In this document: positions 12,786 to 56,403 of the stretch, one piece after another
How the letters are laid out: each line of letters opens with the position of its first letter
How positions within the stretch are numbered: the first letter of the stretch is position 1
Source of the DNA: Escherichia coli
Lineage (GTDB): Bacteria; Pseudomonadota; Gammaproteobacteria; Enterobacterales; Enterobacteriaceae
Strand: one strand, 5' to 3'
Assembly (NCBI RefSeq): GCF_002854065.1
Contig: NZ_CP024147.1
DNA: 64,000 bases
The notes under the pieces: generated by a model
The model's database searches: none
Seen by the model: only the letters and a program-made list of their open reading frames with translations
Told to the model about the DNA's origin: nothing
Position numbers and translations under genes: made by a program

Positions 12786-13150
12786 AATCGACCCGCCATA
12801 ATCCCTGTAAGCAAACGACGCGTGTTACAACTGCCGCCGAACGACGTTCAGCGGATTCTTCCATCCGGGATAAGAAGGAAACGGCAAATACGACCAGCGC
12901 GCAGAGCATTGAGCGCCAACGGGGAAGGCTTAGTGAAAACGGGTAGTAATGTTGTCATCATCAGCATTCCTGGCCGTAAATGAAACACGCATACTCATAA
13001 GTGTGATCTATAAAACTGGCTGACAAAACGGTATCCATCCTGTTGGATAGCGTTTCACGCCTGTTCAGTTGCAGGAACAGAGCATTCCTTTTTACGTTTT
13101 ATCAACAGTCTCAACCAGATAGTAACATTAATATTCATGTTGTCTATGGT

Positions 13151-28291: not shown

Positions 28292-29647
28292 ATGACTAAA
28301 CACTATGATTACATCGCCATCGGCGGCGGCAGCGGCGGTATCGCCTCCATCAACCGCGCGGCTATGTACGGCCAGAAATGCGCGCTGATTGAAGCCAAAG
28401 AGCTGGGCGGCACCTGCGTGAACGTCGGCTGCGTACCGAAGAAAGTGATGTGGCACGCGGCGCAAATCCGTGAAGCGATCCATATGTACGGCCCGGATTA
28501 TGGTTTTGATACCACTATCAATAAATTCAACTGGGAAACGTTGATCGCCAGCCGTACCGCCTATATCGACCGTATTCATACTTCTTATGAAAACGTGCTC
28601 GGTAAAAATAACGTTGATGTAATCAAAGGCTTTGCCCGCTTCGTTGATGCCAAAACGCTGGAAGTAAACGGCGAAACCATCACGGCCGCTCATATCCTGA
28701 TCGCCACCGGCGGTCGTCCGAGCCACCCGGATATTCCGGGCGTGGAATACGGTATTGATTCTGATGGTTTCTTTGCCCTTCCTGCTTTGCCAGAGCGTGT
28801 GGCGGTTGTTGGCGCGGGTTACATCGCCGTGGAACTGGCAGGCGTGATTAACGGCCTCGGCGCGAAAACGCATCTGTTTGTGCGTAAACATGCGCCGCTG
28901 CGCAGCTTCGACCCGATGATCTCTGAAACGCTGGTCGAAGTGATGAACGCCGAAGGCCCGCAGTTGCACACCAACGCCATCCCGAAAGCGGTAGTGAAAA
29001 ATGCCGATGGTAGCCTGACGCTGGAGCTGGAAGATGGTCGCAGTGAAACGGTGGATTGCCTGATTTGGGCGATTGGTCGCGAGCCTGCCAATGACAACAT
29101 CAACCTCGAAGCCGCTGGCGTTAAAACCAACGAAAAAGGCTATATCGTCGTCGATAAATATCAAAACACCAACATTGAAGGTATTTACGCGGTGGGCGAT
29201 AACACGGGTGCAGTAGAACTGACACCGGTGGCAGTTGCAGCGGGTCGCCGCCTCTCTGAGCGCCTGTTTAATAACAAGCCGGATGAGCATCTGGATTACA
29301 GCAACATTCCGACCGTGGTCTTCAGCCATCCGCCGATTGGTACTGTTGGTTTAACGGAACCGCAGGCGCGCGAGCAGTACGGCGACGATCAGGTGAAAGT
29401 GTATAAATCCTCTTTCACCGCGATGTATACCGCCGTCACCACTCACCGCCAGCCGTGCCGCATGAAGCTGGTGTGCGTTGGACCGGAAGAGAAGATTGTC
29501 GGTATTCACGGCATTGGTTTTGGTATGGACGAAATGTTGCAGGGCTTCGCGGTGGCACTGAAGATGGGGGCGACCAAAAAAGACTTCGACAATACCGTCG
29601 CCATTCACCCGACGGCGGCAGAAGAGTTCGTTACCATGAGAGGTTAG
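28292..29647 (+). CDS. gor: glutathione-disulfide reductase
   Basis: 451 aa; FAD site GGGSGG, redox-active [14 protein letters not shown]-terminal HPTAAEE. Confidence 0.95.
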
Positions 29648-29683
29648 TGTAGAAAAACCATACCTACACCTTTGCAAATCTGG

Positions 29684-29713
29684 AAAACTGGCCGTAACAA
29701 GCCAGTTTTTTCT
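29684..29713 (+). terminator. gor rho-independent terminator
   Basis: AAAACTGGC / GCCAGTTTT stem with 8-nt loop then T-run. Confidence 0.6.
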
Positions 29714-29919
29714 TTATAAGAATGATAGTTGACACTCTTGTTTATGTGTATTCTATATAAAATATTGATACCATAATTAAACAGATGAGAATAAAAAAGC
29801 ATCAATTACTTGTTTATATAGAGAACCAATTCTTAGATTTTTCGCATGATTTGAAATAGAAATTGATGATGTATTCGCGTCATTGAATTCCATTTTAAAA
29901 TCTGTTTCTCTAGGTTTAT

Positions 29920-31164
29920 TTAAATATTTTTTTGTATGGTGTCCGGAGATAAGGATAAACTCTCATGCCTAGATAATGGGCGTTCATCTTCTTGTGTATA
30001 TATAACTTTATAATCTTTTGGTAAGTCTTCAGCCAGGCGACCGGAGAATAAAGTTAGTTCGTCAGTAGCCATCGTAAATAACCAAGCTTCCTGATTTATA
30101 CTCTGGTTAACTCGTAAAATTCTACCCAGTACCTGCCTGAAATAGAGCTCAGTTTTAACAGCGCTTAGATGACAGCAAACCTGAAGTCGAGGGATGTCTG
30201 TACCCTCACTGATCATGCCAACACTGACAATCCACTCGGTAGTCGCATGTCGATAATGGTCAATTTTAGAAATGGCTCTTCTATCGTGATATGTCACAAT
30301 AGTTGTAGTTTGGCCAAACTCGTTTTCTAAAATACTTAGTAGTTCATATGCATGCTCGACTGATGAAGCAACAACCAGACCACCTGCGTCAGGGTTAAAT
30401 TTTCTAATTTCACGAAGTTTTTCACATCCAGATTTGATTACATACCTCATTGCATCAGGATACCAAATTATTGATTGATATGAAGTTACTGTCTCATTCA
30501 AAAAGTCTGCTATAGAACTATAATTTTTCATTGTTTCATCGGATGAGATAGCCAAATTGCTACTATTTACAAGGACAATTTTTGGCTTACGACAAACGTT
30601 ATCTGCAATAGCTTCTCTGAGACCGTATTCATAGTCACAGCTAACCACTCCATCCGAATCAGTGTAATTTGAAAACACTATTGGTGTATTGTCTGTTCGC
30701 CATGGAGTTCCTGTTAATGCCAATGTGTAACTGACACATTGTTGAACTTGAGACAGTATTTCCCCGCCCCAGACATTTGCATTTTCCAATGAATCACCAG
30801 AGCAATGATGTATTTCGTCGAAAACAGCCAACACACGATGACGCTTCAAAGAATCCCAGAAACGTTTATCGAAATACATCAGACTATGATAAGTATACAC
30901 CGCGCCAACCGCACCAAAGTCTCCATCAAAACTTCTTTCCAGAATACGGGAAAAATTACTTTTTATAGATGAGACTACCGCTGTTGAGGGGGCAAAGCAT
31001 ATAACCAGATCAACCATATCGAGCTCAAGCATTCTTTTGGTGACTTCGGCCGCCATTACAGTTTTTCCAGCACCAGGACTTGCAAGACATAGAAAGTGCT
31101 GTAATCCAGATTGATACTTTGTTAGCGCAGCGGCAACGCATTCTTTCTGCCAATCTCTCAACAT
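29920..31164 (-). CDS. compact SF2 (DEAD/DEAH-type) helicase, function unknown
   Basis: 414 aa, low GC; motif I SPGAGKT, motif II FDEIHH, motif III LTGTP, motif VI QVLGRILR; no extra nuclease domain. Confidence 0.7.
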   Translation of the reverse strand: MLRDWQKECVAAALTKYQSGLQHFLCLASPGAGKTVMAAEVTKRMLELDMVDLVICFAPSTAVVSSIKSNFSRILERSFDGDFGAVGAVYTYHSLMYFDKRFWDSLKRHRVLAVFDEIHHCSGDSLENANVWGGEILSQVQQCVSYTLALTGTPWRTDNTPIVFSNYTDSDGVVSCDYEYGLREAIADNVCRKPKIVLVNSSNLAISSDETMKNYSSIADFLNETVTSYQSIIWYPDAMRYVIKSGCEKLREIRKFNPDAGGLVVASSVEHAYELLSILENEFGQTTTIVTYHDRRAISKIDHYRHATTEWIVSVGMISEGTDIPRLQVCCHLSAVKTELYFRQVLGRILRVNQSINQEAWLFTMATDELTLFSGRLAEDLPKDYKVIYTQEDERPLSRHESLSLSPDTIQKNI

Positions 31165-31280
31165 ACTCGATGCTCATCACTATGTTGACTAGACTGGCCC
31201 CCTGAATCTCCAGACAACCAATATCACTTAAATAAGTGATAGTCTTAATACTAGTTTTTAGACTAGTCATTGGAGAACAG

Positions 31281-31646
31281 ATGATTGATGTCTTAGGGCC
31301 GGAGAAACGCAGACGGCGTACCACACAGGAAAAGATCGCAATTGTTCAGCAGAGCTTTGAACCGGGGATGACGGTCTCCCTCGTTGCCCGGCAACATGGT
31401 GTAGCAGCCAGCCAGTTATTTCTCTGGCGTAAGCAATACCAGGAAGGAAGTCTTACTGCTGTCGCCGCCGGAGAACAGGTTGTTCCTGCCTCTGAACTTG
31501 CTGCCGCCATGAAGCAGATTAAAGAACTCCAGCGCCTGCTCGGCAAGAAAACGATGGAAAATGAACTCCTCAAAGAAGCCGTTGAATATGGACGGGCAAA
31601 AAAGTGGATAGCGCACGCGCCCTTATTGCCCGGGGATGGGGAGTAA
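31281..31646 (+). CDS. insC: IS2 transposase OrfA (InsC)
   Basis: Product [30 protein letters not shown]... HTH protein. Confidence 0.85.
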
Positions 31647-32509
31647 GCTTAGTCAGCCGTTGTCTCCGGGTGTCGCGTGCGCAGTTGCACGTCATTCTCA
31701 GACGAACCGATGACTGGATGGATGGCCGCCGCAGTCGTCACACTGATGATACGGATGTGCTTCTCCGTATACACCATGTTATCGGAGAGCTGCCCACGTA
31801 TGGTTATCGTCGGGTATGGGCGCTGCTTCGCAGACAGGCAGAACTTGATGGTATGCCTGCGATCAATGCCAAACGTGTTTACCGGATCATGCGCCAGAAT
31901 GCGCTGTTGCTTGAGCGAAAACCTGCTGTACCGCCATCGAAACGGGCACATACAGGCAGAGTGGCCGTGAAAGAAAGCAATCAGCGATGGTGCTCTGACG
32001 GGTTCGAGTTCTGCTGTGATAACGGAGAGAGACTGCGTGTCACGTTCGCGCTGGACTGCTGTGATCGTGAGGCACTGCACTGGGCGGTCACTACCGGCGG
32101 CTTCAACAGTGAAACAGTACAGGACGTCATGCTGGGAGCGGTGGAACGCCGCTTCGGCAACGATCTTCCGTCGTCTCCAGTGGAGTGGCTGACGGATAAT
32201 GGTTCATGCTACCGGGCTAATGAAACACGCCAGTTCGCCCGGATGTTGGGACTTGAACCGAAGAACACGGCGGTGCGGAGTCCGGAGAGTAACGGAATAG
32301 CAGAGAGCTTCGTGAAAACGATAAAGCGTGACTACATCAGTATCATGCCCAAACCAGACGGGTTAACGGCAGCAAAGAACCTTGCAGAGGCGTTCGAGCA
32401 TTATAACGAATGGCATCCGCATAGTGCGCTGGGTTATCGCTCGCCACGGGAATATCTGCGGCAGCGGGCTTGTAATGGGTTAAGTGATAACAGATGTCTG
32501 GAAATATAG
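31604..32509 (+). CDS. insD: IS2 transposase OrfB (InsD), DDE integrase-like
   Basis: 301-aa ORF in the frame overlapping insC 3-prime end, as expected for IS3-family frameshift expression. Confidence 0.85.
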
Positions 32510-33063
32510 GGGCAAATCCATTGACCAAGTACTTTTGTTAAAGCGGTAACTCTGCCAAGCAATTCTGCCGACTGATTTTTTGCCTGCTGATAAAGGTCCA
32601 TAAAACATATCTTCTTGGCTGGAAAACGTTCCATCAAAGATTGATATTCTTCTAGCTCGCCCAGAATCACAGCAAGTTTGGCTTCATGAATAACTTTTTC
32701 TTTTTCTATATCGACCAAGAAACGATCAGCCCCCGGTGCCGACGGTTTCATTTTTTCGGGCATAGCGATAAGCCGCGAATTCTTTGGCAACGCTCTTGGT
32801 ATGAAAATAGTTGAATGAAAACTTTCCGTTTTCTTATACACACTTCTGGACTTGCCACCACTACTCTCAATTTTATAGATGAAGCCCAGGGACTCTAACC
32901 GAAGAAGTTGTCGGTGAATGAATTTTCTAGCCTCAGTAACTTCTGCGTAGTCATCTGTAATCTTCAGCAAAGCATCCCTGAGATGGATAGCGCAGAACTC
33001 ATTAAAACCCATCTCAATCAATAACTTATACATATATGGATGCAACTTTACTGCAGATTTCAT
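32434..33063 (-). CDS. hypothetical protein with putative winged-helix region; native C-terminus displaced by IS2 (last 27 codons are IS2-encoded)
   Basis: ORF reads into IS2 at 32520; removing IS2 and one TTGAC copy restores ...VLGQHSDEHRVC-stop, ending 4 nt downstream of the helicase ATG. Confidence 0.55.
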
Positions 33064-33161
33064 TATAAAAAATCCAAAATAACAAACTTAGAATTGCTAA
33101 GTATACAGAAACCAACGAAACTTAGACAATCTCAGCACCCTAAGGCAATGATGATGAATAC

Positions 33162-33473
33162 GTGGCTCACCCAAACCCGATACCCGAGAGGCTCAAAGCG
33201 GCCAGAACAAAAGCTGGGATCACTCAGAAGGAATTGGGGATCCGAATTGGCATGGAACCCAGCTCGGCGAGTGGTCGTATGAACCATTATGAGAAAGGGA
33301 GACACACTCCTGACATTGATACCCTCAAGCGTATGGCTGATGAACTTGGGGTACCAATTAACTATTTCTTTTGCGAGAACGACATAACTGCAGAATTAGC
33401 ATGTCTGATAGCTAAAATGACTGAGCAGCAGCAGATTGAATTGATTGCTATGCTAAAGAAAAATCAATCTTAG
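33162..33473 (+). CDS. XRE-family helix-turn-helix transcriptional regulator
   Basis: 103 aa; HTH LKAARTKAGITQKELGIRIGMEPSSASGRMNHYEKG typical of Cro/C1-type regulators. Confidence 0.7.
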   Translation: MAHPNPIPERLKAARTKAGITQKELGIRIGMEPSSASGRMNHYEKGRHTPDIDTLKRMADELGVPINYFFCENDITAELACLIAKMTEQQQIELIAMLKKNQS

Positions 33474-33861: not shown

Positions 33862-36474
33862 ATGATGCTCAGTAGCGAGTTTTTGCGCTTTTTTCAAACC
33901 TTAAACACAACAGAAGTCCCCAGTAATGTCAGGAAAATAGCGAATCTTGTGTGGGATAACCTAGATGATATAACCCCATTGGGCACTTCGCAGGGTCAGC
34001 GAGTCAGGCGCATTGTCTCTCTGGCACAGTCTGCATGGGATGCCCTCAGTACAGAAGTACAGCCACTACCAGAGCAGACCGCTGAACGCGTCTCCACGTT
34101 TAGTCGGCTGAGAAAGATATCTGTTGGACCATTTAGAGGGTTTGCAAAGCAAGAAGAATTTGATCTGGATTCACGTCTAGTGCTGATTTACGGCCCCAAT
34201 GGTACTGGGAAGTCAAGTTTCTGCGAAGCGCTTGAATATACATTACTGGGCAATGTGGCTGAGGCCGAAAGCAAGCGTTTCCGGAATCAAAACGACTATT
34301 TTAAAAATGCACATGTCAATCGGTTTTCTGTTCCAGAGATAATTGGTGTCGGAGATCATGGGCAGGATGTGTCGATTGAGAATAACGAAGCACAGTATCG
34401 CTTTTGCTTTGTTGAAAAAAATCGTATCGACAACTTTTCAAGAATCGCGGCTCTGGTCCCAACAAGGCAGACTGAACTTATCTCAACACTATTCGGGCTA
34501 GATAGTTTTAATGATTTTGTGCGAAATTTTACATCAGATATTGATGCCAGATACATCGATCTAACAGGCGTAAAAGCAGGTCAGTTGGCAGAAAAGCGCA
34601 AGTCTCTTCTGGCTGCACAGCAGCAATTGGCGACAGGTCAGGCTGCCCTGGAAGGGTTGGCATCAGAGGAACAGACACTGGCTTCTGTTTATCGTGAAGG
34701 CCTGTCTTACCAGCAGATGCTAGCTGAGTTAAAAGGGGATGAACAAAATATCGGAACCATCCGACAGCTTGAAACAGAGTTACAAACGCCACTTCCGAAT
34801 CAGAGTAGCCTGACATCTGCTATTTTGAACGATATAAGTAGCGCTGTTGAAACGGCACTTATAGATCTGGAAAGCAAGCAGAAGCAACTGGCAGAGGCAA
34901 GTCAGCAGGTTTCATATAAAAATTTATTTGAAGCAGTTGTCCAGTTACAGGGTACCAGCCCGGAACAATGCCCTGCATGCCATACCCCTCTTCAGCAAAC
35001 CGCCAAAAACCCCTACAGCCATGCCTGTGATGAATTGCTAAAGCTTGAGTTTCTGTCGACATTACAGGGAGAAATAACTCAGCTGGAAAAATTAATTGGC
35101 CAGTTGATGTACAGTGTTTCACAAGTAATCGGCACATGCTGTCAGTTTTTGCCACATGACAATGCTCTTGAAGTATTCCGAAATGAAAATGGCATCACTT
35201 TATGGCGTAATCTGCGGCAGCAAACAGGAGATGGCATAACTCCCTGGGCTCAGCTTGAAAAACAGGTGTGGCATCTGGAGGGAGAAGATAAAAAAATAGA
35301 GGAAGCAACTAAATTGCGAGAATCCCGTCAGCGGGATCTTGCGAGAATGCGTGAATCTGATCGCCAGATAACGATTTTGCAGACAAGAAGAGATACGATA
35401 GAAAAAACCATCTCTGCGGCTCAGTTGTTGATTGGCAACTTTGATACTGAAAACAGGCAGCTAATTGAAGAAGTTGCTCACGAAGAAGACATTGTAAGGA
35501 AAAACAAAGCAATTTCAGAAGCGTATTCCCGGTTCGTTTTACAGCTGAACGCCTATAAAGAGGGATTACCTCAGAGACTTGTAGCGAATCTTGGGGATCA
35601 CATTGTCACTCTCTACAACGCATTTAACCGTAATGACCCCCCGGGAGAAAAGCTAGCAGGTATCAAACTACCTCTGCTGCAGAATCAGCGACTGGAAGTA
35701 GCGTTTCAGAATAATCCAACGCAACTATTCGATGCCCTGCATGTACTTAGTGAGGGGCATGTACGCTGTATAGGGCTGGCTATTTTGTTGGCAAAAAACA
35801 TTAATGAACAGTGTCCACTTTTGATATTTGATGACCCGGTCAATGCTATTGATGACGATCACAGAGAATCGATTCGGAGAACGTTGTTTGAAGATGCTTT
35901 CTTTGCTGAAAAACAAATCATTCTGGCCTGCCATGGAGAGGAATTCTTCAAAGACATCCAGAATTTATTGCCAGCGCCGGTTGCCGCACAGTCCAAGACT
36001 TTCAGCTTCTTACCGCGTCTTGACGAATTGCATATCCGCGTAGATTTTAACTGCGCTCCCAGGAACTATATTATTTCTGCACGAGGGCATTATGAGCGTA
36101 ATGAGATTCGGGAGGCGCTTGCAAAATGCAGACAGTCACTTGAATCGTTGATGAAGGGGAGAGTCTGGCGATATGTAAATAAATATGGTGATGGTAATCT
36201 TAGTCTCAAGCTAAGGTCAGCAACGGCACCTATTGAGTTACGTAACTTGTCGGATCAATTGAAGAAACAGATCAATAAAGCTGAGTTCCGTGACCAAAAT
36301 AAAAACGCCGTATTCACACCAATTGATGTGTTAACTGGGCTAAGTGGAGAATCACGAGAATGGCGCTATCTAAATAAAGGTACGCATGAGGAAGACGGCA
36401 GGGCTGAGTTTGATCGAGCAACAGTAGAAACCATGATTTCTGCCCTTGAGGCGCTCGATCAGGCTGTGAGTTAA
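33862..36474 (+). CDS. SMC/Rad50/RloC-like ABC ATPase with central CxxC hook and uncharacterised C-terminal domain
   Basis: 870 aa; Walker A LIYGPNGTGKSS, about 500 aa Q/E/L-rich coiled-coil with EQCPACH midway, signature-like LSEGHVRCIGLA, Walker B/D-loop LLIFDDPVNAIDDDH, H-loop ILACHGEEF, then about 170 aa of unknown function. Confidence 0.65.
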   Translation: MMLSSEFLRFFQTLNTTEVPSNVRKIANLVWDNLDDITPLGTSQGQRVRRIVSLAQSAWDALSTEVQPLPEQTAERVSTFSRLRKISVGPFRGFAKQEEFDLDSRLVLIYGPNGTGKSSFCEALEYTLLGNVAEAESKRFRNQNDYFKNAHVNRFSVPEIIGVGDHGQDVSIENNEAQYRFCFVEKNRIDNFSRIAALVPTRQTELISTLFGLDSFNDFVRNFTSDIDARYIDLTGVKAGQLAEKRKSLLAAQQQLATGQAALEGLASEEQTLASVYREGLSYQQMLAELKGDEQNIGTIRQLETELQTPLPNQSSLTSAILNDISSAVETALIDLESKQKQLAEASQQVSYKNLFEAVVQLQGTSPEQCPACHTPLQQTAKNPYSHACDELLKLEFLSTLQGEITQLEKLIGQLMYSVSQVIGTCCQFLPHDNALEVFRNENGITLWRNLRQQTGDGITPWAQLEKQVWHLEGEDKKIEEATKLRESRQRDLARMRESDRQITILQTRRDTIEKTISAAQLLIGNFDTENRQLIEEVAHEEDIVRKNKAISEAYSRFVLQLNAYKEGLPQRLVANLGDHIVTLYNAFNRNDPPGEKLAGIKLPLLQNQRLEVAFQNNPTQLFDALHVLSEGHVRCIGLAILLAKNINEQCPLLIFDDPVNAIDDDHRESIRRTLFEDAFFAEKQIILACHGEEFFKDIQNLLPAPVAAQSKTFSFLPRLDELHIRVDFNCAPRNYIISARGHYERNEIREALAKCRQSLESLMKGRVWRYVNKYGDGNLSLKLRSATAPIELRNLSDQLKKQINKAEFRDQNKNAVFTPIDVLTGLSGESREWRYLNKGTHEEDGRAEFDRATVETMISALEALDQAVS

Positions 36475-36607: not shown

Positions 36608-37336
36608 TTAATCACTGAATACCAACGAATCTAATACACCTTGTCCACTATGAACTCCTCCTTCAACTGACTCTGCTGATTTGCTACGGATCAAATACCC
36701 AGCAAAACTGTGATCAGCGCTAGATGCATTGTTACCTATCTGGACGGAGAACATTCCTAGTTCGCTGACCAGATCAGTAACCTGATATAACTCCCCTTTA
36801 CGGACAACCAGAGAAGGTGTAGCTCGCGGGACAGGATGTATCCGACGCATGAACGACCAGGATTGATATTGCAGCGGGTCAAGTCTTGCCAGTTTTAACT
36901 GGATATCAGAGCCAAACAGACAATGCCCACCCCCTTCGCCCTGGTTTTTGAGAACCCATGAATCAGAAGGAGACTCTTTTACAATGCTGATTGTATCAGG
37001 GCTAACAGGAAGCATTTCGCCCAACACCATTTTTATGATATCAACCTCTTCCGGCTTCAGTCCAAAAGCAATCAGTTCATCGCACCCCAAATGAGAGAGC
37101 AACATTTGTACTCGCTTACTTGTCGCAAGTTGCTGAGCGACTGTTGCATTCACCGCAACTCGGTGCTGCTCAATCAATACTCGCGTGGCCATTAGCGTCT
37201 GGCAACACTCCTTCTCATTGAGACTGGCGGCTTCATAATCTGAGTATTGATATCCGGCACGTAAGTAAACAGAAGTAGTATGGGTGTATGAACTTGTCAT
37301 TGTTTTGACATTTATCAAATATATTCGATTATGCAT
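36608..37336 (-). CDS. hypothetical cysteine-containing protein, divergent from arsR
   Basis: 242-aa ORF (alternative start at 37300); no motif recognised. Confidence 0.4.
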   Translation of the reverse strand: MHNRIYLINVKTMTSSYTHTTSVYLRAGYQYSDYEAASLNEKECCQTLMATRVLIEQHRVAVNATVAQQLATSKRVQMLLSHLGCDELIAFGLKPEEVDIIKMVLGEMLPVSPDTISIVKESPSDSWVLKNQGEGGGHCLFGSDIQLKLARLDPLQYQSWSFMRRIHPVPRATPSLVVRKGELYQVTDLVSELGMFSVQIGNNASSADHSFAGYLIRSKSAESVEGGVHSGQGVLDSLVFSD

Positions 37337-37787: not shown

Positions 37788-38156
37788 TTGAGAATGAAAA
37801 CGCTAGCGGTATTCGACCCGGCAATGTGTTGTAGCACCGGTGTCTGCGGTACTGATGTCGATCAGGCTCTGGTTGATTTTTCCGCGGATGTGCAATGGCT
37901 GAAACAACGAGGTGTTCAGGTAGATCGTTTCAATCTGGCACAGCAACCGATGAGCTTTGTCCAGAACGAGAAAGTTAAAGCATTTATTGAGGCTTCTGGT
38001 GCGGAAGGGCTGCCATTACTGTTACTGGATGGCGAAACAGTGATGGCCGGGCGTTATCCGAAACGGGCTGAACTTGCACGGTGGTTTGGAATTCCGCTGG
38101 AGAAAGTAGGATTAGCGCCTTCAGGCTGCTGCGGTGGTAATACTTCTTGTTGTTAA
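37788..38156 (+). CDS. arsD: arsenic metallochaperone/regulator ArsD
   Basis: N-terminal MCCSTGVCG (Cys12/13/18) and C-terminal CCGGNTSCC. Confidence 0.9.
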   Translation: MRMKTLAVFDPAMCCSTGVCGTDVDQALVDFSADVQWLKQRGVQVDRFNLAQQPMSFVQNEKVKAFIEASGAEGLPLLLLDGETVMAGRYPKRAELARWFGIPLEKVGLAPSGCCGGNTSCC

Positions 38157-38173
38157 GTATGTCAGGAGGACAT

Positions 38174-39925
38174 ATGAAATTCTTACAGAACATCCCCCCT
38201 TATCTGTTTTTTACTGGTAAAGGAGGCGTTGGTAAAACCTCTATTTCCTGCGCCACGGCGATCCGTCTGGCAGAACAGGGTAAACGAGTGCTGCTGGTCA
38301 GTACCGATCCGGCCTCAAACGTAGGCCAGGTCTTTGGCCAGGTTATTGGCAATACTATTCAGCCAATAGCCACTGTTCCTGGATTGTCGGCACTTGAGAT
38401 TGATCCTCAGGCCGCTGCGCAACAGTACCGGGCCAGAATCGTTGACCCTATTAAAGGTGTCCTGCCTGATGACGTCGTTAGCAGCATCAACGAACAACTG
38501 TCTGGTGCATGCACAACAGAGATTGCGGCTTTTGATGAGTTTACCGGATTACTGACAGACGCCTCTTTGCTGACCCAGTTTGACCATATCATCTTTGATA
38601 CCGCGCCAACCGGCCATACTATTCGCCTTCTCCAGTTGCCAGGCGCCTGGAGCAGCTTTATTGACAGCAATCCCGAGGGCGCATCCTGCCTCGGCCCGAT
38701 GGCGGGGCTGGAAAAACAGCGTGAACAGTATGCCCATGCCGTTGAAGCACTGTCCGACCCAGCGCGTACCCGCCTGGTTTTAGTTGCCAGACTGCAAAAA
38801 TCCACCCTGCAAGAAGTCGCCCGAACTCATTTAGAACTCGCCGCAATTGGCCTTAAAAATCAGTACTTGGTCATTAATGGCGTTCTGCCCAAAACTGAAG
38901 CGGCAAACGATACACTGGCTGCGGCTATATGGGACCGTGAACAGGAGGCGCTGGCCAATCTTCCTTCTGACCTTTCCGGTCTGCCAACTGACACGTTATT
39001 CCTCCAACCACTCAATATGGTCGGCGTGGCTGCATTAAGTGGGCTTCTCTCCTCTCAGCCTGAGGCAGCATCATCTTCTGAAGAATACATTCAGCAACGA
39101 CCTGAAATTCCGTCGCTCTCAGCGTTAGTCGATGATATTGCCCGTAACGAACATGGTCTGATAATGCTAATGGGCAAAGGCGGTGTGGGGAAAACCACGA
39201 TGGCGGCAGCCATTGCCGTCAGACTGGCCGAAATGGGATTTGATGTCCATCTGACCACCTCAGATCCAGCAGCACACCTCAGCACAACCCTGAACGGTAG
39301 CCTTAACAATCTGCAGGTCAGTAGAATCGATCCTCACGAGGAAACAGAACGCTATCGTCAGCATGTTCTTGATACCAAGGGTGGAGAACTGGATGAAGCG
39401 GGTAAACGCCTGCTGGAAGAAGATTTACGCTCTCCTTGTACCGAAGAGATTGCGGTCTTCCAGGCCTTTTCACGGGTGATTCGTGAAGCGGGTAAGCGCT
39501 TCGTGGTCATGGATACGGCACCCACCGGGCATACCCTACTGCTGCTGGATGCCACCGGGGCGTATCACCGCGAAATTGCTAAGAAAATGGGCGATAAAGG
39601 CCATTTCACCACGCCAATGATGCAGCTTCAGGACCCGGAGCGAACCAAAGTGTTACTGGTCACGCTGCCGGAAACCACGCCCGTGCTTGAGGCGGCAAAT
39701 TTGCAGGCCGACCTTGAACGCGCAGGGATTCATCCCTGGGGCTGGATTATCAATAACAGCCTTTCCATTGCGGATACCCGTTCGCCGCTGCTTCGTCTGC
39801 GGGCGCAACAGGAACTTCCGCAGATCGAGAGTGTTAAACTCCAGCATGCCAGTCGCGTAGCTCTTGTTCCTGTACTGGCGTCAGAACCGACCGGCATCGA
39901 CAAACTCAAACAACTCGCTGGTTAA
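38174..39925 (+). CDS. arsA: arsenite pump ATPase ArsA
   Basis: Start [23 protein letters not shown]; duplicated P-loops (GKGGVGKTS / GKGGVGKTT) and DTAPTGH motifs. Confidence 0.9.
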
Positions 39926-39972
39926 TTATTGTCATTACTCGGGGCAGCTTTGCTGCCCTTTCGGGAGGTTAT

Positions 39973-41262
39973 ATGTTACTGGCAGGAGCCATTTTTATCC
40001 TGACCATCGTGTTGGTTATCTGGCAGCCAAAGGGATTAGGCATTGGCTGGAGCGCCACGCTGGGTGCCGTACTGGCTCTGGCATCGGGTGTGATTCATAT
40101 CGCCGATATTCCGGTGGTGTGGAATATCGTCTGGAACGCCACGGCCACCTTTATTGCCGTCATTATCATCAGTCTGTTGCTGGATGAGTCCGGCTTTTTT
40201 GAATGGGCTGCACTGCACGTTTCCCGCTGGGGCAATGGGCGTGGACGTCTGCTATTTACCTATATTGTTCTGCTCGGCGCGGCGGTGGCGGCATTGTTTG
40301 CCAACGATGGCGCGGCGTTAATTCTGACGCCGATCGTTATCGCCATGCTACTGGCGCTGGGATTCAGTAAAAGCACCACGCTGGCTTTCGTGATGGCCGC
40401 AGGGTTTATTGCCGATACCGCCAGCTTGCCACTTATCGTATCGAACCTGGTCAATATCGTTTCGGCTGATTTCTTCAAACTGGGATTCACGGAGTATGCG
40501 TCAGTTATGGTGCCGGTGGATATTGCCGCCATTGTCGCCACGCTGGTGATGCTGCATCTTTTTTTCCGCAAAGATATCCCGCCCACTTATGAGCTGGCGC
40601 GACTGAAAGAACCCGCAAAAGCCATCAAAGATCCTGCGACGTTCAGAACCGGCTGGGTTGTGCTCCTCCTTCTGCTGGTCGGTTTTTTTGTCCTTGAGCC
40701 GATGGGGATCCCTGTGAGTGCGATTGCGGCAGTGGGGGCGGCAATCCTGTTTGCGGTGGCCAAAAAAGGTCATGGTATTAACACCGGTAAAGTGCTGCGC
40801 GGCGCGCCCTGGCAGATCGTGATCTTCTCACTGGGGATGTATCTGGTGGTATACGGGTTGCGTAACGCCGGTCTGACGGATTATCTCTCTGACGTGCTGA
40901 ACGTACTGGCAGATAAAGGACTGTGGGCCGCGACGCTGGGGACAGGATTCCTGACTGCATTCCTCTCTTCTATCATGAACAATATGCCGACCGTACTGGT
41001 TGGCGCACTGTCGATTGATGGCAGCACCGCGACCGGCGTTATCAAAGAAGCGATGATTTATGCCAACGTCATTGGCTGCGATCTGGGGCCGAAAATCACC
41101 CCTATTGGTAGCCTGGCGACACTGCTCTGGCTGCACGTGCTTTCACAGAAGAATATGACAATCTCGTGGGGATACTACTTCCGCACCGGGATTATCATGA
41201 CCCTGCCTGTGCTGTTTGTAACGCTGGCTGCGCTGGCGCTACGTCTCTCTGTCACTTTGTAA
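39973..41262 (+). CDS. arsB: arsenite efflux permease ArsB
   Basis: 429-aa polytopic membrane protein between arsA and arsC. Confidence 0.9.
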
Positions 41263-41274
41263 TGAGATTCTGAT

Positions 41275-41700
41275 ATGAGCAACATCACTATTTATCACAA
41301 CCCAGCCTGCGGCACCTCGCGTAATACGCTGGAGATGATCCGCAACAGCGGTACCGAGCCGACCATTATTCTTTACCTTGAGAACCCACCTTCGAGGGAT
41401 GAATTGGTCAAACTCATTGCCGATATGGGTATTTCAGTACGAGCGCTGCTGCGTAAAAACGTTGAGCCTTACGAGCAACTGGGTCTTGCAGAAGATAAAT
41501 TTACTGACGATCAGCTCATCGACTTTATGTTGCAACACCCAATTCTGATTAACCGTCCGATCGTGGTTACGCCGCTGGGAACCAGACTGTGCCGTCCTTC
41601 TGAAGTGGTTCTGGATATCCTGCAGGATGCGCAGAAAGGGGCTTTCGCTAAGGAAGACGGTGAAAAGGTCGTTGATGAAGCAGGAAAACGGCTGAAATAA
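41275..41700 (+). CDS. arsC: arsenate reductase ArsC (glutaredoxin-coupled type)
   Basis: 141 aa, catalytic HNPACGTSRN motif. Confidence 0.9.
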   Translation: MSNITIYHNPACGTSRNTLEMIRNSGTEPTIILYLENPPSRDELVKLIADMGISVRALLRKNVEPYEQLGLAEDKFTDDQLIDFMLQHPILINRPIVVTPLGTRLCRPSEVVLDILQDAQKGAFAKEDGEKVVDEAGKRLK

Positions 41701-41702
41701 AT

Positions 41703-41728
41703 AATAAGGGGGCGAATGCCCCCTTATT
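41703..41728. terminator. 11-bp perfect palindrome after arsC
   Basis: AATAAGGGGGC gaat GCCCCCTTATT. Confidence 0.55.
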
Positions 41729-41734
41729 CGTACC

Positions 41735-42271
41735 TCAGAGCATCATGCCTGAATCCGATGGTAACGTGCTGTTCCCTTCGCCCAGATTTCGTTGCAGCAA
41801 CACTGTGTCAAGCCAACGACCATGCTTGAAGCCAATATTTTTCAGCGTACCAATCTCAGTAAATCCAACCTGCTGATGGACTTTCAGCGAACCTTGATTA
41901 TTGCTATCGCCGACAATAGCAATCATCTGCCGATAGCCGTGAGTTTCTGCCCAGGCAATGACGTAGCGCAGCAACGCTTTTCCTGTCCCCTGACGCTGTG
42001 CGTCCGGGTGAATATAAATCGAATCTTCGAGAGTGTGGCGGTAGGCGTAGCGTTCACGGTAACGAGTGAGATAACAATACCCGATAACCTTTTCTTCCTC
42101 TAACGCGACAACCCACGGTAGCGCCTGATTGCGGATCTTTTTCAGGCGGGTAAGCATCTCGTGGGTATCCGGAGGTTCAGTTTCAAAGCTGGCGGTACCG
42201 TGAAGAACATGATGGGCGTAGATATCGCGTATAGCGGGGATGTGCTTTTCTTCTGCGTTAACGATTTTCAT
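41735..42271 (-). CDS. GNAT family N-acetyltransferase (phosphinothricin acetyltransferase-like; possible ArsN-type)
   Basis: 178 aa; acetyl-CoA binding region QRQGTGKALL; located between two ars operons. Confidence 0.65.
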   Translation of the reverse strand: MKIVNAEEKHIPAIRDIYAHHVLHGTASFETEPPDTHEMLTRLKKIRNQALPWVVALEEEKVIGYCYLTRYRERYAYRHTLEDSIYIHPDAQRQGTGKALLRYVIAWAETHGYRQMIAIVGDSNNQGSLKVHQQVGFTEIGTLKNIGFKHGRWLDTVLLQRNLGEGNSTLPSDSGMML

Positions 42272-42483
42272 TGTTCTGTTCCCGTTGGCATCTTTTTCAA
42301 GGTTACTTGAAAATCCTGAGGAAAGGTAAATACAAAAGCTTATGACCCAATAAGCAGGCTAATCTTCAATCCCATCTTTTGTTTTCATTCATGCAGGGAG
42401 ACAAATATGTGCTTCCAGTATCCTTATTTTTTATGTTACCTTTTCCGTTATGTCTAAAATGACATAACGGAAAAGGTAAACCC

Positions 42484-43308
42484 ATGTCCTCAGAATCAAA
42501 ACGGAACGGAAAAGGTTTTTTATCAGGCACGTTAATCGGTGCTTTAGGCGGCTTAATTGGCCTCGGTGGCGCTGAGTTCCGCCTTCCCGTCCTGATGGGT
42601 AGTTTCAAAATGCCGACGCTTGAAGCGGTTATTTTTAACAAAGCGATGAGCCTTACTGTTGTCGCTGTTGCTTTGATATTCCGCACAAAATCCATCGCCG
42701 TCGACCAGCTGTTTGCTCATCTTGATATTGTCATCAATTTGCTGGCCGGGAGCCTTATAGGTGCATGGTGGGCAGCAGGAAGAGCCATAAAAATGTCCCG
42801 TATTTGGCTGGACAGAACCATTCTGCTCCTGCTTGTTATCCTGTCATTCGTCATGTTTTCAGAAGCATTGATGCCTCTGCATGATAGCTCCGCTGGATTA
42901 TTCCAGCCCGGAATCGCGACCATTATTGCGGGTGTTATTGCGGGTGTTATTGCGGGTTTCTTCATCGGGAATGTTGCTGCTTTGCTGGGTGTTGCAGGGG
43001 GAGAGCTCCTGATACCAACTATCGTTATCCTTTTTGGGGCTGACATTAAACTGGCTGGCAGTTTGTCACTCATGATCAGTTTACCGACGATGATTGTGGG
43101 GTTCTCTCGCTACACTAATGCAGATGCTTTCCAGATCCTGAGAAAAGAGAAAAAACTTTTTGTGTGGATGGTCATCGGTTCCGTTATAGGTGCCGCTATT
43201 GGGGGCCTTATGCTCGGTATGTTCCCGGTAAGAGTACTTATGACTCTGTTAGGCGCGGTACTTCTTATTTCCGCGATCAAAACCTTTAAGCATACCCGGC
43301 AAAGATAA
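42484..43308 (+). CDS. TauE/SafE (TSUP) family membrane transporter
   Basis: 274-aa, 4+4 TM repeat architecture with GxxGG motifs (GALGGLIGLGGAEF, AALLGVAGGELL). Confidence 0.7.
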   Translation: MSSESKRNGKGFLSGTLIGALGGLIGLGGAEFRLPVLMGSFKMPTLEAVIFNKAMSLTVVAVALIFRTKSIAVDQLFAHLDIVINLLAGSLIGAWWAAGRAIKMSRIWLDRTILLLLVILSFVMFSEALMPLHDSSAGLFQPGIATIIAGVIAGVIAGFFIGNVAALLGVAGGELLIPTIVILFGADIKLAGSLSLMISLPTMIVGFSRYTNADAFQILRKEKKLFVWMVIGSVIGAAIGGLMLGMFPVRVLMTLLGAVLLISAIKTFKHTRQR

Positions 43309-43370
43309 TAGCCGTTTACGCTTTGGACTATTCCGCATTACAGAGAAAATGATTTCGAAAAGGTATCAGA

Positions 43371-43739
43371 ATGAAAAAGAATCCCCTTAAATCAAACTTA
43401 ATCTTAGTCAGACCGAGGATCTATATTAACGACAACATCTCGCTGGGGCCGGGGAAGGTTGACCTTTTAAGGGCGATTGATGGCTTTCACTCTCTTTCTG
43501 CGGCAGCTAAAGATTTGGGGATACCTTATAAAAAAGCATGGCTCTTAATTGACACTTTGAATAAAGGGATTGGTCAGCCAGTTGTAACCACTTCCACTGG
43601 TGGTAACAAGGGCGGTGGTACAGTTCTGACGCCATTGGGGCGTAGCCTGCTGATCTGGTATGACCAGGCCGAGGCCCACCTCAATGAGCAATCTCAGCAA
43701 CAGTTAATCGAACTTGAAAAGATTCTTTTTGGAAAATGA
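43371..43739 (+). CDS. ModE N-terminal-domain-like winged-helix regulator
   Basis: LGPGKVDLLRAIDGFHSLSAAAKDLGIPYKKAW...GGNKGGGTVLTPLG matches the ModE-type HTH pattern. Confidence 0.6.
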   Translation: MKKNPLKSNLILVRPRIYINDNISLGPGKVDLLRAIDGFHSLSAAAKDLGIPYKKAWLLIDTLNKGIGQPVVTTSTGGNKGGGTVLTPLGRSLLIWYDQAEAHLNEQSQQQLIELEKILFGK

Positions 43740-43784
43740 CAGAGACCTTTGTTATCCATCGGGAAAATAGAGTGACAGCAATGC

Positions 43785-43810
43785 ATGAAGGGGGCTAATG
43801 CCCCCTTCAT
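43785..43810. terminator. 11-bp perfect palindrome, near-copy of the hairpin at 41703
   Basis: ATGAAGGGGGC taat GCCCCCTTCAT between convergent ModE-like gene and arsA2. Confidence 0.55.
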
Positions 43811-43812
43811 TA

Positions 43813-45570
43813 TTACTTCGCCATTTCTTCCAGCAGGTCAATACCAACCGGCTCTTCGCTCTGTAGCGCTGTTAATGCAATACGCTTTGCATACTGCTCT
43901 TCCACATCAGAGATGAGAGGCAGCTCGCGGTTAGCTCTGGTCTTCAGGAAAGGTGAAGACGGCTCAGCAGCTGCCAGGCTGTTATTCACAACCCATGCCC
44001 ACGGCTCAATGCCAGCCCGACGCAGATCCTGCTGCAGGTTAGCGGCTTCCAGTACAGGTGTCGTTTCGGCAAGCGTCACGATAATCACCTTCGTCTTCTC
44101 CGGGTCCTGCAATTGCATCATTGGCGTCATCACATGGTCATGTGTTTGCCCCATCTGGCGCACCATTTCCCGGTGATAGGCTCCAGTCGCATCCAGTAGC
44201 AGAAGTGTGTGACCCGTTGGCGCGGTGTCCATAATGACAAAATGATCGTCTGCCTCTTTGATTATCCGCGAGAATGCCTGGAAGACGGCGATCTCTTCAG
44301 TACATGGTGAGCGGAGATCTTCTTCCAGCACCGCCAGCCCCTCAGCGTCTAATCCTTTGCCCTGATTCTCCAGTACAAAACGGCGATAACGCTCTGTCTC
44401 CACCTTCGGATCGATACGGCTGACCTGCAGATTTGGCAGCGAGCCATCCAGCGTGTAAGACAGATGTGCTGCCGGATCGGACGTGGTCAGATGGACTTTA
44501 TGACCGCGTTTTGCCAGCGATACCGCGACCGATGCTGCAACAGTCGTTTTGCCCACGCCGCCTTTCCCCATCGTCATTACCAGCCCTTTGCCTGTCAGAC
44601 TGAGTTCATCCACTAACGAGGAAAGTTTCGGTAAATCCAGAGCATTTAGCGTTGTATTGGAGAGAGACAGTGGCGCTTTGCTCTCTGTTAATAACTCTCG
44701 CAGGGCTTCCAGACCGACCAGATTAAATGGCTTCAGAGACAGCTGCGAGCGGGGAAGATTAACCAGATTATCAGGCATTGCCTGTAATGCTTTTTCTTCC
44801 CGAGCCAGAATACTTTGCGCCAGTGGATCATTTTCACCGGCAAACGGTGGCAGCACACCATTAATGGCAAGGTGTTGATGCTGCAAACCAATAGCAGAAA
44901 GCTCATCGTGCGTATGAGAAACCTCTTTCAGCGTTGAAGCCTGAGCTCGGGCAACCAGCACTAAGCGTGTGAGAGCTGCGTCGGACAGCGCTTTAACCGC
45001 ATCGGAGTACTGGTGCTGTTGTTTCTCAAGCCCTACCAGAGGTCCAAGGTTTGCAGCGGCATCAGGGTTCGCTTCGAGATAACCGCTCCAGGCTCCCGGC
45101 AATTCAAGCATGCGGATGGTGTGACCGGTTGGCGCGGTATCAAATACGATATGGTCATATTTTCCCCGCAGCTCATGATTGGTCAGCAGACCAGTAAACT
45201 CATCAAACGCAGCGATTTCCGTGGTGCATGAGCCGGAAAGCTGCTCTTCAATGCTGCTGACCACATCGGCTGGCATCAGCCCGCGAACAGGGTCGAGCAC
45301 ACGGTCACGATAGGCTTGCGCTGCAGCCATCGGATCAACTTCCATCGCGGCAAGATTTTCTACAGTACTGATATCTGTGATTCGGTGGCCGATAGTCTGG
45401 CTAAATACCTGGCCGACATTGGAAGCCGGATCGGTACTCACCAGAAGCGTTCTCTTACCCTGATCGGCCAGCCATACTGCAGTAGCACAGGCCAGGGATG
45501 TCTTACCCACTCCACCTTTACCAGTGAAGAAGATGAACGGGGGAATGTCTTTTAAAAATGGCATATTCAT
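43813..45570 (-). CDS. arsA: second arsenite pump ATPase ArsA paralogue
   Basis: Start [25 protein letters not shown]; duplicated P-loops and DTAPTGH motifs; diverged from the copy at 38174. Confidence 0.85.
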   Translation of the reverse strand: MNMPFLKDIPPFIFFTGKGGVGKTSLACATAVWLADQGKRTLLVSTDPASNVGQVFSQTIGHRITDISTVENLAAMEVDPMAAAQAYRDRVLDPVRGLMPADVVSSIEEQLSGSCTTEIAAFDEFTGLLTNHELRGKYDHIVFDTAPTGHTIRMLELPGAWSGYLEANPDAAANLGPLVGLEKQQHQYSDAVKALSDAALTRLVLVARAQASTLKEVSHTHDELSAIGLQHQHLAINGVLPPFAGENDPLAQSILAREEKALQAMPDNLVNLPRSQLSLKPFNLVGLEALRELLTESKAPLSLSNTTLNALDLPKLSSLVDELSLTGKGLVMTMGKGGVGKTTVAASVAVSLAKRGHKVHLTTSDPAAHLSYTLDGSLPNLQVSRIDPKVETERYRRFVLENQGKGLDAEGLAVLEEDLRSPCTEEIAVFQAFSRIIKEADDHFVIMDTAPTGHTLLLLDATGAYHREMVRQMGQTHDHVMTPMMQLQDPEKTKVIIVTLAETTPVLEAANLQQDLRRAGIEPWAWVVNNSLAAAEPSSPFLKTRANRELPLISDVEEQYAKRIALTALQSEEPVGIDLLEEMAK

Positions 45571-45590
45571 CAGTGATAGCTCCTCTGGAA

Positions 45591-45953
45591 TTAAGGCATA
45601 CGTGGAATGCTGCAGCAACGCGGTTGCGTACTGTCTTCACTCCAGTCCTGAGTTAGCGGAATATCTGCCCAACGGGCGATATCTTCACGAGTCGGCAGTT
45701 TGCCTGCCATCACCAGCTTGCCGTCGAGCAAGGTGACAGGGAGGGATTCCATCCCTGATGTGTTCATAAACTCTTTGATTACAGGGGTATTCAGGAACTG
45801 CTGCGGGTTTTTCGCAAGGCTGTAGCGCTGAATATCAACGCCATTCTTTTTCGCCCATTCGGCGCTGGCATTCCATTTGACGGCTTCGTCGCTCACCACA
45901 ACGCTGCTGGTTGCGCAGCAGCCTGCTGCTTCAAAGATCTCAATTTTTGACAT
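45591..45953 (-). CDS. arsD: divergent ArsD-like metallochaperone
   Basis: 120 aa; vicinal Cys pair (AAGCCATS) at the ArsD Cys12/13 position but lacks Cys18; C-terminal CC. Confidence 0.7.
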   Translation of the reverse strand: MSKIEIFEAAGCCATSSVVVSDEAVKWNASAEWAKKNGVDIQRYSLAKNPQQFLNTPVIKEFMNTSGMESLPVTLLDGKLVMAGKLPTREDIARWADIPLTQDWSEDSTQPRCCSIPRMP

Positions 45954-46028
45954 GGATTGTTTACCTCAGTGTTTAGTCATTTGGCTTTACACTGAGGTAA
46001 ACGAAGGTGGTGGGAAAAAGATGCGCGA

Positions 46029-54271: not shown

Positions 54272-54310
54272 ACTCTGCATAGTTATTGTAAGAACGGATA
54301 TGATTGTGAG

Positions 54311-56391: not shown

Positions 56392-56403
56392 TGAGATAAT
56401 GAT

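Follow-up and report, generated by a model that had tools for sequence, protein, structure and literature searches.

In CRISPR-associated transposons (CASTs) of type I-F3, a gene for an Xre regulator located between tnsABC and tniQ-cas is conserved in nearly all members, as described by Petassi et al. (bioRxiv 10.1101/2020.07.02.184150). Two types were distinguished, a ∼100-aa protein resembling C.Csp231I in I-F3b elements and a 68-aa protein in I-F3a elements. The I-F3b protein has two binding motifs upstream of xre and a third upstream of tniQ-cas or of the atypical array; it represses them, which was interpreted as zygotic induction (bioRxiv 10.1101/2020.07.02.184150); a later review names the two CAST regulators RtaC and RtbC. 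C.Csp231I itself recognizes an operator of two boxes, CTAAG-N5-CTTAG, separated by an 18-bp spacer (PMC4321490). In the VPaI-7 island of Vibrio parahaemolyticus, the "hypothetical" gene VPA1392 lies divergent from the gene for the 68-aa Xre protein VpxR and is repressed by VpxR; the promoter of VPA1392 is silenced by H-NS, ToxR, and LeuO, and the relation of the gene to the CAST was stated to be unknown (PMC12150760). [quoted passage not shown] GInts have also been reported as defense-carrying islands in E. coli (PMC10121019). Here, we analyzed a stretch of 64,000 nucleotides from an Escherichia coli genome (contig NZ_CP024147.1; hereafter, the window), in which a small gene and a gene for a superfamily 2 (SF2) helicase, separated by an insertion sequence between positions 29920 and 33063, lie next to a divergent xre gene. 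We found that genes for an XRE regulator, a VspR-like protein, and this helicase form a fixed trio, of which the window contains an IS2-split, frameshifted remnant within a degenerate island.

To define the trio, one genome per species was scanned with a helicase alignment, which returned 445 loci, and the best 80 of these were analyzed by open reading frame (ORF) calling and profile searches. A VspR-like gene was located directly upstream of the helicase gene in 79 of these 80 species-representative loci, with the one exception at a contig edge, and a divergent xre gene was detected in 73. The initial annotation of the window, made from its letters, had described a two-gene operon beside an XRE regulator and proposed to look for uninterrupted pairs in other genomes. 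The pair does co-occur elsewhere, but the unit proved to be larger than had been proposed, being a fixed trio in which the operon shares a control region of C-boxes with xre. In the 75 loci where the junction could be evaluated, the vspR stop and the helicase start overlapped by 7 nt in 48 and by 1 to 11 nt in 11 more, and were 0 to 5 nt apart in the remaining 16; at every locus other than that of VSP-1 for which downstream sequence was available, the helicase gene followed the vspR-like gene, overlapping its stop or starting no more than 5 nt away. The arrangement persists at 22 to 27% VspR identity, in Klebsiella, Shewanella, and on Pseudomonas plasmids, as well as in distant metagenomic members. 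Pairwise identities of helicase and VspR were correlated with r = 0.71, and those of helicase and XRE with r = 0.40. At least eight genomes contain two copies of the trio. Within E. coli the module is rare (9 of 5,426 complete genomes), and the family was present on 17 of 72,556 plasmids, all of them large.

The trio is usually located right beside insertion genes, mostly at the border between core and cargo, in two unrelated classes of integrative elements. Within 10 kb, 24 of the 80 loci exhibited a four-gene core of the SE/GInt type, which was upstream on the same strand in 17 loci, convergent downstream in 6, and otherwise arranged in 1, and at 12 of the 17 the stop of srap/ginD was no more than 700 nt from the xre stop. 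Tn7-like tnsA-tnsB-tnsC genes were found directly upstream in 14 loci, in all of which the distance from the tnsC stop to the xre stop ranged from -4 to +22 nt. Core fragments were present in 7 loci, several of them cut by the locus edge. Two loci (L039 and L099) have the trio after tniQ-cas8-cas7-cas6, the alternative standard layout of I-F3 CASTs. The second of these is an I-F3 CAST with a 68-aa Xre, in which the gene at the position of VPA1392 is a member of the VspR family, followed by a short helicase-like ORF fragment and then by the contig end. Two loci with an SE-type core (L040 and L046) contain inverted repeats just upstream of the core and 5 to 8 kb downstream of the helicase; if these are the element ends, they would place the trio between the core and further cargo. 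Searches of the literature for links of VspR to helicases, Tn7/CAST elements, or GInts returned nothing relevant, and the SE and GInt papers make no mention of the trio, which as a unit appears to be undescribed in the searchable literature.

The xre gene of the window (33162 to 33473, plus strand) is divergent from the vspR-like/helicase operon and codes for a 103-aa protein of the C.Csp231I class of controller (C) proteins. A phmmer search aligned its residues 9 to 97 with residues 4 to 92 of the 98 residues of PDB entry 3lfp_A (E = 1.1e-18), and it matched the PADLOC profile Control_protein with E = 4.9e-26. In ∼50 loci, the intergenic region between xre and vspR (∼100 bp) held a pair of 15-bp palindromes, between which lay a conserved spacer of 19 nt (TTTTACTGATTTCTGTATA, almost identical in the first two operator classes described below). 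The proximal box of the window, CTTAG-AATTG-CTAAG (33087 to 33101), ends 23 nt before the ATG of the vspR-like gene and is conserved in ∼50 related loci, and the distal box, a degenerate CTTAG-ACAAT-CTCAG (33121 to 33135), lies 19 nt from it. Both boxes coincide with elements of a predicted promoter reading leftward into the vspR-like gene (TTGTCT, 18 nt, TATACT): the distal box overlaps the -35-like TTGTCT, and the -10-like TATACT overlaps the upstream edge of the proximal box by 2 nt. The promoter match alone is not above chance, and the argument from this coincidence is made because the boxes are conserved across loci.

Three classes of operators were distinguished among the intergenic regions of loci L018 to L097. 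About half of the related loci carry CTAAG-N5-CTTAG, as in the C.Csp231I operator, with the 19-nt spacer; the other half, including E. coli, have the half-sites swapped (CTTAG-N5-CTAAG), with CTCAG in the distal box of the window as a further departure. The third class, found mostly in Shewanella, combines a 68-aa XRE with the palindrome CGGATTATAATCCG. Genomes with two trios sometimes carry different operator classes, and from their sequences the classes look like immunity-group diversification of one switch. No gene for a restriction endonuclease or methyltransferase was present next to xre in the window, where the downstream gene on the same strand codes for an 870-aa SMC/LmuB-like ATPase.

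The small protein encoded upstream of the helicase, once restored in silico, is a member of the VspR family. Since the local Pfam-A library predates the VspR_N and VspR_C models, the domain calls are precomputed hits in a large protein database, in which PF27213 (VspR_N) and PF27192 (VspR_C) were assigned to proteins 98 to 100% identical to it and to all homologues. Searches of the small protein against the local Pfam, PHROGs, NCBIfam, and PADLOC libraries gave no match, and a search against PDB sequences gave nothing significant. An AlphaFold2 model (mean predicted local distance difference test [pLDDT] score, 80.8) exhibited a winged helix-turn-helix at residues 1 to 90 and a long helical hairpin at residues 112 to 187, in keeping with the C-terminal helical domain of dimerization type that marks the family. 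Together with the Pfam hits, the model bears out the earlier suggestion that the protein binds DNA through a winged helix. Clustering at 50% identity divides the family into 616 clusters, and its Vibrio homologues are named "transcriptional regulator VspR" by several sources. A profile search of a word-indexed database with the VspR alignment recovered close relatives only and not V. cholerae VspR, and a cluster look-up for ten VspR-family representatives returned "VspR" names but no V. cholerae member. By likeness to V. cholerae VspR, the small protein would act as a repressor. A paper citing Davies et al. (2012) describes that protein as a negative regulator bound, by chromatin immunoprecipitation (ChIP), at the VSP-1 locus of CBASS (the antiphage signaling system based on cyclic oligonucleotides) of V. 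cholerae; in one study, a vspR mutation left a CBASS-dependent phenotype unchanged.

As had been read from the window at the outset, IS2 separates the small gene from the helicase gene in what was originally an operon with overlapping frames. The element (31190 to 32520, plus strand; 1331 bp, with orfA and orfB) is flanked by a 5-bp target duplication, TTGAC, at 31185 to 31189 and 32521 to 32525. It is >99% identical to IS2 in thousands of E. coli records, and its ends, length, orfA/orfB, and duplication all fit IS2 of the IS3 family. On its right remain 181 codons of the 5' part of the vspR-like gene (32521 to 33063, minus strand), which read on into IS2 as a 209-aa ORF (32434 to 33063). On its left, the displaced last 8 codons and stop of the gene (HSDEHRVC-stop; 31158 to 31184, minus strand) were recognized by reading the sequence and by comparison with an intact homologue, and still overlap the helicase by 7 nt (helicase ATG at 31164 to 31162). 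In silico removal of IS2 and one repeat copy yielded a 189-aa ORF ending in LTKVLGQHSDEHRVC-stop. An uninterrupted pair adjoining gor was found in E. coli strain 100416 (NZ_CM128593; locus L001), consisting of WP_032288315 (189 aa) and WP_202794843 (462 aa). Its small gene ends in VLGQHSDEHRVC-stop, and the last 7 nt, ATGTTGA, include the helicase start (ATG plus 4 nt), so that the predicted stop 4 nt past the helicase ATG exists in a natural genome, with frames that are probably translationally coupled.

In the window, IS2 parts the helicase gene from its promoter, and VspR loses its own last 8 residues to IS2-derived sequence. In strain 100416, the one other E. coli chromosome carrying this island, the pair is intact, but xre is split into a pseudogene and a short ORF (17178 to 17489 of L001), and the neighboring ATPase gene is interrupted by an IS3-family element (17878 to 19766 of L001); the parts of the module that decay thus differ between the two strains. 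Because of the split by IS2 and a frameshift in the helicase gene, the module copy of the window is probably non-functional; two recombinase genes of its island are broken as well.

The helicase gene as read in the window (29920 to 31164, minus strand) codes for 414 aa. Membership in SF2 (DExH, ResIII/Helicase_C) was evident from a Walker A motif, a DExH box, motif III, and an arginine finger, and from matches to Pfam ResIII (4e-11), Helicase_C (1.8e-3, a weak match), and the broad phage family phrog_16 DNA helicase (5e-40). In an alignment of 12 diverse members, PGAGKT, DEIHHC, TGTPWR, the SVGMISEGTDIPRLQVCCH block, and FRQVLGRILR were invariant or nearly so, which confirms the helicase motifs of the initial annotation. 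The accompanying claim of a minimal 414-aa helicase without accessory domain was based on a frameshifted copy and is not supported; the real protein has ∼80 residues more, including a conserved terminal helix. A homopolymer of seven T residues in the window (29927 to 29933) corresponds to eight in RefSeq CUWW06 and strain 100416, and the resulting shift of frame leaves 414 aa; the missing T may reflect an error of sequencing or assembly, or else a true lesion. In these two RefSeq genomes, the helicase is intact at 462 aa, and the full-length protein would end at about position 29777 of the window. A three-way DNA alignment and the translation of the intact copy placed the out-of-frame 3' end, which encodes a linker and the conserved terminal helix, at 29777 to 29933 (minus strand). 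Members of the family are 457 to 470 aa long and consist of the core, a variable linker, and the conserved C-terminal helix (L.LG.F.QRVI.AF), which the frameshifted helicase of the window lacks. The closest characterized or solved proteins were RadD (NCBIfam, 8e-15), PDB entry 6jde (5e-5), and XPBII (5e-6). Orthology with RadD was rejected, with a score of 54.2 bits against a curated cutoff of 720 bits (NCBIfam NF053632). An AlphaFold model of the helicase from the 12-sequence alignment was poor (mean pLDDT, 55.8).

We tentatively read the pair in the window as the vspR-like/helicase operon of the conserved XRE-VspR-helicase module and the module as an element-encoded control switch with a co-translated helicase as output, a reading to which we would give a little less than an even chance. 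In the proposed circuit, an XRE dimer would bind the two C-boxes at the -35 and -10 elements of the vspR-like promoter and repress it, and VspR would repress neighboring promoters, including that of the xre-like gene, as VspR of V. cholerae reportedly does. XRE and VspR would thereby form a mutually repressing toggle that is reset on entry into an XRE-free cell (zygotic induction). The helicase, co-translated with VspR, would be the enzymatic output of the "on" state and might act on DNA for the benefit of the element, in its establishment or mobilization after entry. For the first step there is precedent in homologues, in which the boxes are bound by XRE and repression extends to its own promoter, the genes for transposition targeting, and the divergent promoter (bioRxiv 10.1101/2020.07.02.184150; PMC12150760), and we infer it for the copy in the window.

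Several points weigh against such a switch. All loci were seeded on the helicase or VspR, and the counts given above are not the share of CAST or SE/GInt elements that carry the trio. In 35 of the 80 loci, no transposition core was found in the available flanks, although 12 of these 35 had <3 kb of flank on one side. The mutual-repression step draws, by analogy, on what Davies et al. (2012) reportedly found for VspR, and a role of the helicase, or of VspR-like proteins outside VSP-1, in transposition, excision, or establishment is conjectural. Studies of SE/GInt recombination implicate no helicase (PMC5385486, PMC10214605), and because the four core genes are the essential ones, the helicase would be at most accessory to it. 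The divergence of the trio was only weakly correlated with that of the core (r = 0.29), and a coefficient of ∼0.3 suggests that the trio has been exchanged between elements like cargo. At the Tn7-like loci, median identities were 40% for TnsB and 29% for TnsC versus 89% for XRE and 65% for the helicase (loci listed for this comparison: L023, L045, L051, L053, L060, L070, L075, L083, L084, L087, L093, L094, and L096), which would imply either exchange of the trio between elements or a much stronger constraint on it; that the trio has been kept next to such diverged transposition genes counts, for its part, in favor of the switch. Finally, the other neighbors of the trio are mostly defense systems, namely, type I restriction-modification (R-M), bacteriophage exclusion (BREX), CBASS, retron, and PDC-S06/Lamassu (LmuB)-like ATPase systems, and these neighbors fit a role in defense equally well.

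The trio might accordingly be an undescribed antiphage or antiplasmid defense cargo in which the SF2 helicase is the effector or sensor and XRE and VspR keep it repressed, which we consider rather unlikely, though deserving of serious attention. It is found inside defense islands: genes for PglZ/BrxL of a BREX system end right at xre in one locus (L097), type I R-M genes directly follow the helicase in 11 loci, and retron genes and PDC-S06/LmuB-like ATPase genes occur nearby. Both classes of carrier elements are known for transporting defense systems (PMC8649781, PMC10121019), and control by C proteins is typical of toxic R-M effectors (PMC4321490). Repression of the helicase would parallel both the delay of restriction enzymes by C proteins and the repression of the V. 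cholerae CBASS by VspR, and the better conservation of the trio than of the cores, with swapping between elements, would also be expected of defense cargo. The helicase itself is weakly similar to PbeA, to type I/IV restriction helicase domains, and to a Dnd restriction enzyme (E = 1e-9 to 1e-5). However, even its best match in PADLOC-DB v2.0.0, PbeA (1.9e-9), covers the helicase core only, so that its matches there are at domain level, and the small protein has none. In none of the three proteins was a nuclease, toxin, or other effector domain detected. The fixed position beside core genes in two unrelated element classes and the frequent double copies are unusual for ordinary defense cargo, and XRE has been shown to regulate transposition genes (bioRxiv 10.1101/2020.07.02.184150).

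In a third account, which we regard as improbable, the trio regulates the cargo next to it: XRE and VspR would set the expression of nearby defense or accessory genes, as VspR does for the CBASS genes of VSP-1, and the helicase would serve VspR as a signal-sensing or DNA-remodeling cofactor that, for example, evicts the repressor or counters silencing by H-NS. The tight translational coupling suggests a fixed VspR-to-helicase ratio, as a complex would need, and the silencing of the VPA1392 promoter by H-NS, ToxR, and LeuO (PMC12150760) also speaks for this account. A CBASS, the type of locus at which ChIP-bound VspR was described as a negative regulator, adjoins the trio on plasmid pWL297 and in Shewanella. 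On the other hand, the neighboring cargo is wholly different between loci, which leaves no common target, the CBASS-dependent phenotype was unaffected by vspR mutation in the one study mentioned above, and no conserved VspR operator was identified in the analyzed loci.

A replication module of an island, plasmid, or phage, with an initiator-like DNA-binding protein and a replicative helicase, is largely refuted and very improbable; island replication was one of two roles offered in the initial annotation. Some initiator/helicase pairs do look similar, with a helicase coupled to a small protein that binds DNA, and distant helicase relatives (≤33% identity) are phage "DNA helicases", seen as the match to phrog_16 and as matches in actinophages and IMG/VR. 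However, the small protein had no match in 50,697 phage records, where matches to the helicase reached at most 31% identity; a single contig among 2.9 million viral ones carried the pair; the surroundings of the trio in the 80 loci showed no recurrent primase, polymerase, Rep, or origin-like repeats; the helicase is of the monomeric SF2 type represented by RadD and XPB rather than a hexameric replicative one; and the carrier elements are not known for autonomous replication. The phage relatives (L103 to L148) are ∼530 to 700 aa long, are 25 to 33% identical to the helicase, score 120 to 225 bits against the family profile, and have no VspR-like neighbor; they may be the evolutionary source of the element helicase or a parallel branch. 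The alternative of "defense or replication" offered for the window should be replaced by an XRE-VspR-helicase module of CASTs and SE/GInt elements.

The trio remnant of the window lies in an island located 3' of prlC, rlmJ, and gor. Apart from one base, the sequence of the window is 100% identical to that of E. coli strain CUWW06 (NZ_CP182139). The low GC content noted at the outset was confirmed (∼0.40 to 0.46 in the island versus ∼0.55 in the flanking DNA), as was the adjoining xre gene. By BLAST comparison with the empty site of K-12 (gor-dinQ), the island is ∼26.1 kb long and extends from 29629 to 55726. The junctions, which were read directly, are marked by imperfect 10-bp direct repeats, the left one (CGTTACCATG, 29629 to 29638) within the 3' end of gor and the right one (CGTGACCATG) at 55717 to 55726. 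Inside them lies a perfect 11-bp pair of terminal inverted repeats, TGTAGAAAAAC at 29648 to 29658 and GTTTTTCTACA at 55684 to 55694. The left inverted repeat is followed by the motif AAATCTGGAAAA at ∼29676 to 29687; a similar motif makes up the inverted repeats that, in L040 and L046, enclose the trio and its SE-type core. From its left end, the island contains the helicase gene and, beyond IS2, the 5' part of the vspR-like gene (both on the minus strand), followed by the divergent xre gene, the gene for the 870-aa ATPase, ars genes, and a recombinase operon.

This operon (49413 to 55013, plus strand) is a four-gene tyrosine-recombinase core of the SE/GInt type, with intA-like, tfp/ginB-like, intB/ginC-like, and srap/ginD-like genes, as identified by jackhmmer and by tblastn with the intact proteins of another E. 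coli locus (L003). Its genes are 80 to 92% identical to that intact set and distant from the Vibrio sets. Relative to the intact set, there is a frameshift in the second gene near 51.7 kb and a premature stop in the third near 54272 (region 50749 to 54565); because these two genes are broken, the island is probably immobile. The four-gene operon (two or three tyrosine-recombinase-like genes and a small fourth one) and the site-specific insertion at the 3' end of gor, with short imperfect direct repeats and terminal inverted repeats, identify the island as one of the SE/GInt kind. Its core was not located at the attL (5') end; 19.8 kb separate it from that left end, and it is directed toward the right end, which is 0.7 kb away. 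Tandem insertion was considered as the cause of this odd position, and the DNA upstream of the core operon was examined for an additional, third att repeat or for another terminal inverted repeat; the search returned only a 9-bp match (CCGTAACAA, at 29692 and 49263), which is too weak to decide the matter and might be a vestige of an internal end. In a circularized island the helicase gene would be convergent with srap, as is the case on plasmid pWL297 (L013) and in Buttiauxella (L019).

The island also contains two arsenic resistance clusters (38147 to 47293), one composed of arsD-arsA-arsB-arsC and the other of a further set, arsA/arsD/arsH, accompanied by a factor of the sigma-70 family, and remnants of the chromosomal ars locus follow the island (56343 to 56771). 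The 870-aa SMC/RecF-like ABC ATPase is encoded downstream of xre on the same strand (33862 to 36474, plus strand). Its best PADLOC matches were LmuB (3e-26) and mad3, with weaker matches to PDC-S06, DndD, and PbeC, and no gene for a Lamassu partner was seen. In a Vibrio locus (L041), a clear PDC-S06 homologue is encoded one gene upstream of xre and adjoins a type I restriction subunit gene. A 242-aa ORF (36608 to 37336, minus strand), named "glutathione synthetase" by PGAP, matched TIGR01986, the model for glutathione synthetase of the eukaryote type, with E = 1e-29, but only over its C-terminal half (positions 263 to 471); it appears fragment-like and is unusual in a bacterial island next to gor. 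Another strongly AT-rich stretch (GC content, 0.33 to 0.38) is located at 13001 to 17000 of the window, far from the helicase locus.

Although the copy in the window is a remnant and the module is rare in E. coli, the module is a good lead. It is conceivable, if somewhat doubtful, that the trio is an accessory module, so far unrecognized, that I-F3 CASTs, which are RNA-guided Tn7-like transposons, widely share with SE/GInt elements, that the CAST Xre studied so far is one third of a conserved switch, and that the helicase either promotes establishment or mobility of the element in a new host or provides a new helicase-based immunity that belongs to the standard equipment of these elements. Programmable DNA insertion is a goal for which I-F3 CASTs are being engineered, and what is known of their native regulation concerns the Xre proteins only. 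If the vspR-like/helicase operon belongs to the same circuit, the "hypothetical" VPA1392 repressed by VpxR would be explained, VspR of the V. cholerae pandemic island would be linked to a much broader family of mobile-element switches, and a dedicated helicase may influence transposition efficiency or host range. The presence of the module in SE/GInt elements as well suggests a control cassette that is traded among unrelated integrative elements carrying defense islands.

Compared with the described systems, the island of the window shares with SEs and GInts the defining four-gene operon, imperfect direct repeats at the 3' end of a gene, and terminal inverted repeats; in described SEs and GInts, however, the core is 5' and is followed by cargo, whereas in the window it forms the right end, reads outward, and has the cargo upstream of intA. 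The helicase has the two-RecA-domain DExH core common to RadD (YejH) and XPB, but not the C-terminal zinc and single-stranded DNA-binding protein (SSB)-binding parts of RadD, instead of which it has its own conserved terminal helix. The small protein belongs to the same Pfam family as V. cholerae VspR (VC0177 of VSP-1) and is similar in size (∼175 to 190 aa), but is only distantly related to it in sequence. The genomic logic of VSP-1 is the same, with a small repressor in an acquired island, located beside VC0176, a small gene for a putative regulator, and beside a CBASS operon; there, vspR is presumably followed by the CBASS operon capV-dncV-cap2-cap3 and not by a helicase gene. With the C.Csp231I and C.EcoO109I controllers, the XRE protein has homology over the whole domain (E = 1e-18), and an operator architecture of two 15-bp palindromic boxes ∼18 to 19 bp apart recurs, with the half-site order of C.Csp231I in about half of the related loci and with a swapped order in the window; unlike in those systems, the genes of the divergent operon are those for a repressor and a helicase, and no restriction enzyme or methyltransferase is under the control of XRE in the window. 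A further counterpart is the Xre of I-F3 CASTs. The window XRE is likewise of the C.Csp231I class, as is RtbC; in 14 loci, the trio xre stands directly after tnsC, which is the described position of xre; the paired C-boxes upstream of xre match sites with demonstrated binding and repression; and the RtaC/VpxR type has its counterpart in those trios whose XRE is 68 aa long and whose palindrome contains TATAAT. In contrast to the CAST systems, the window xre is located in an SE/GInt-type island without Tn7 or CRISPR genes and has swapped half-sites (CTTAG-N5-CTAAG), and whereas the CAST papers treat Xre alone and do not describe the conserved vspR-like/helicase operon, the loci analyzed here place it in a fixed trio with both.

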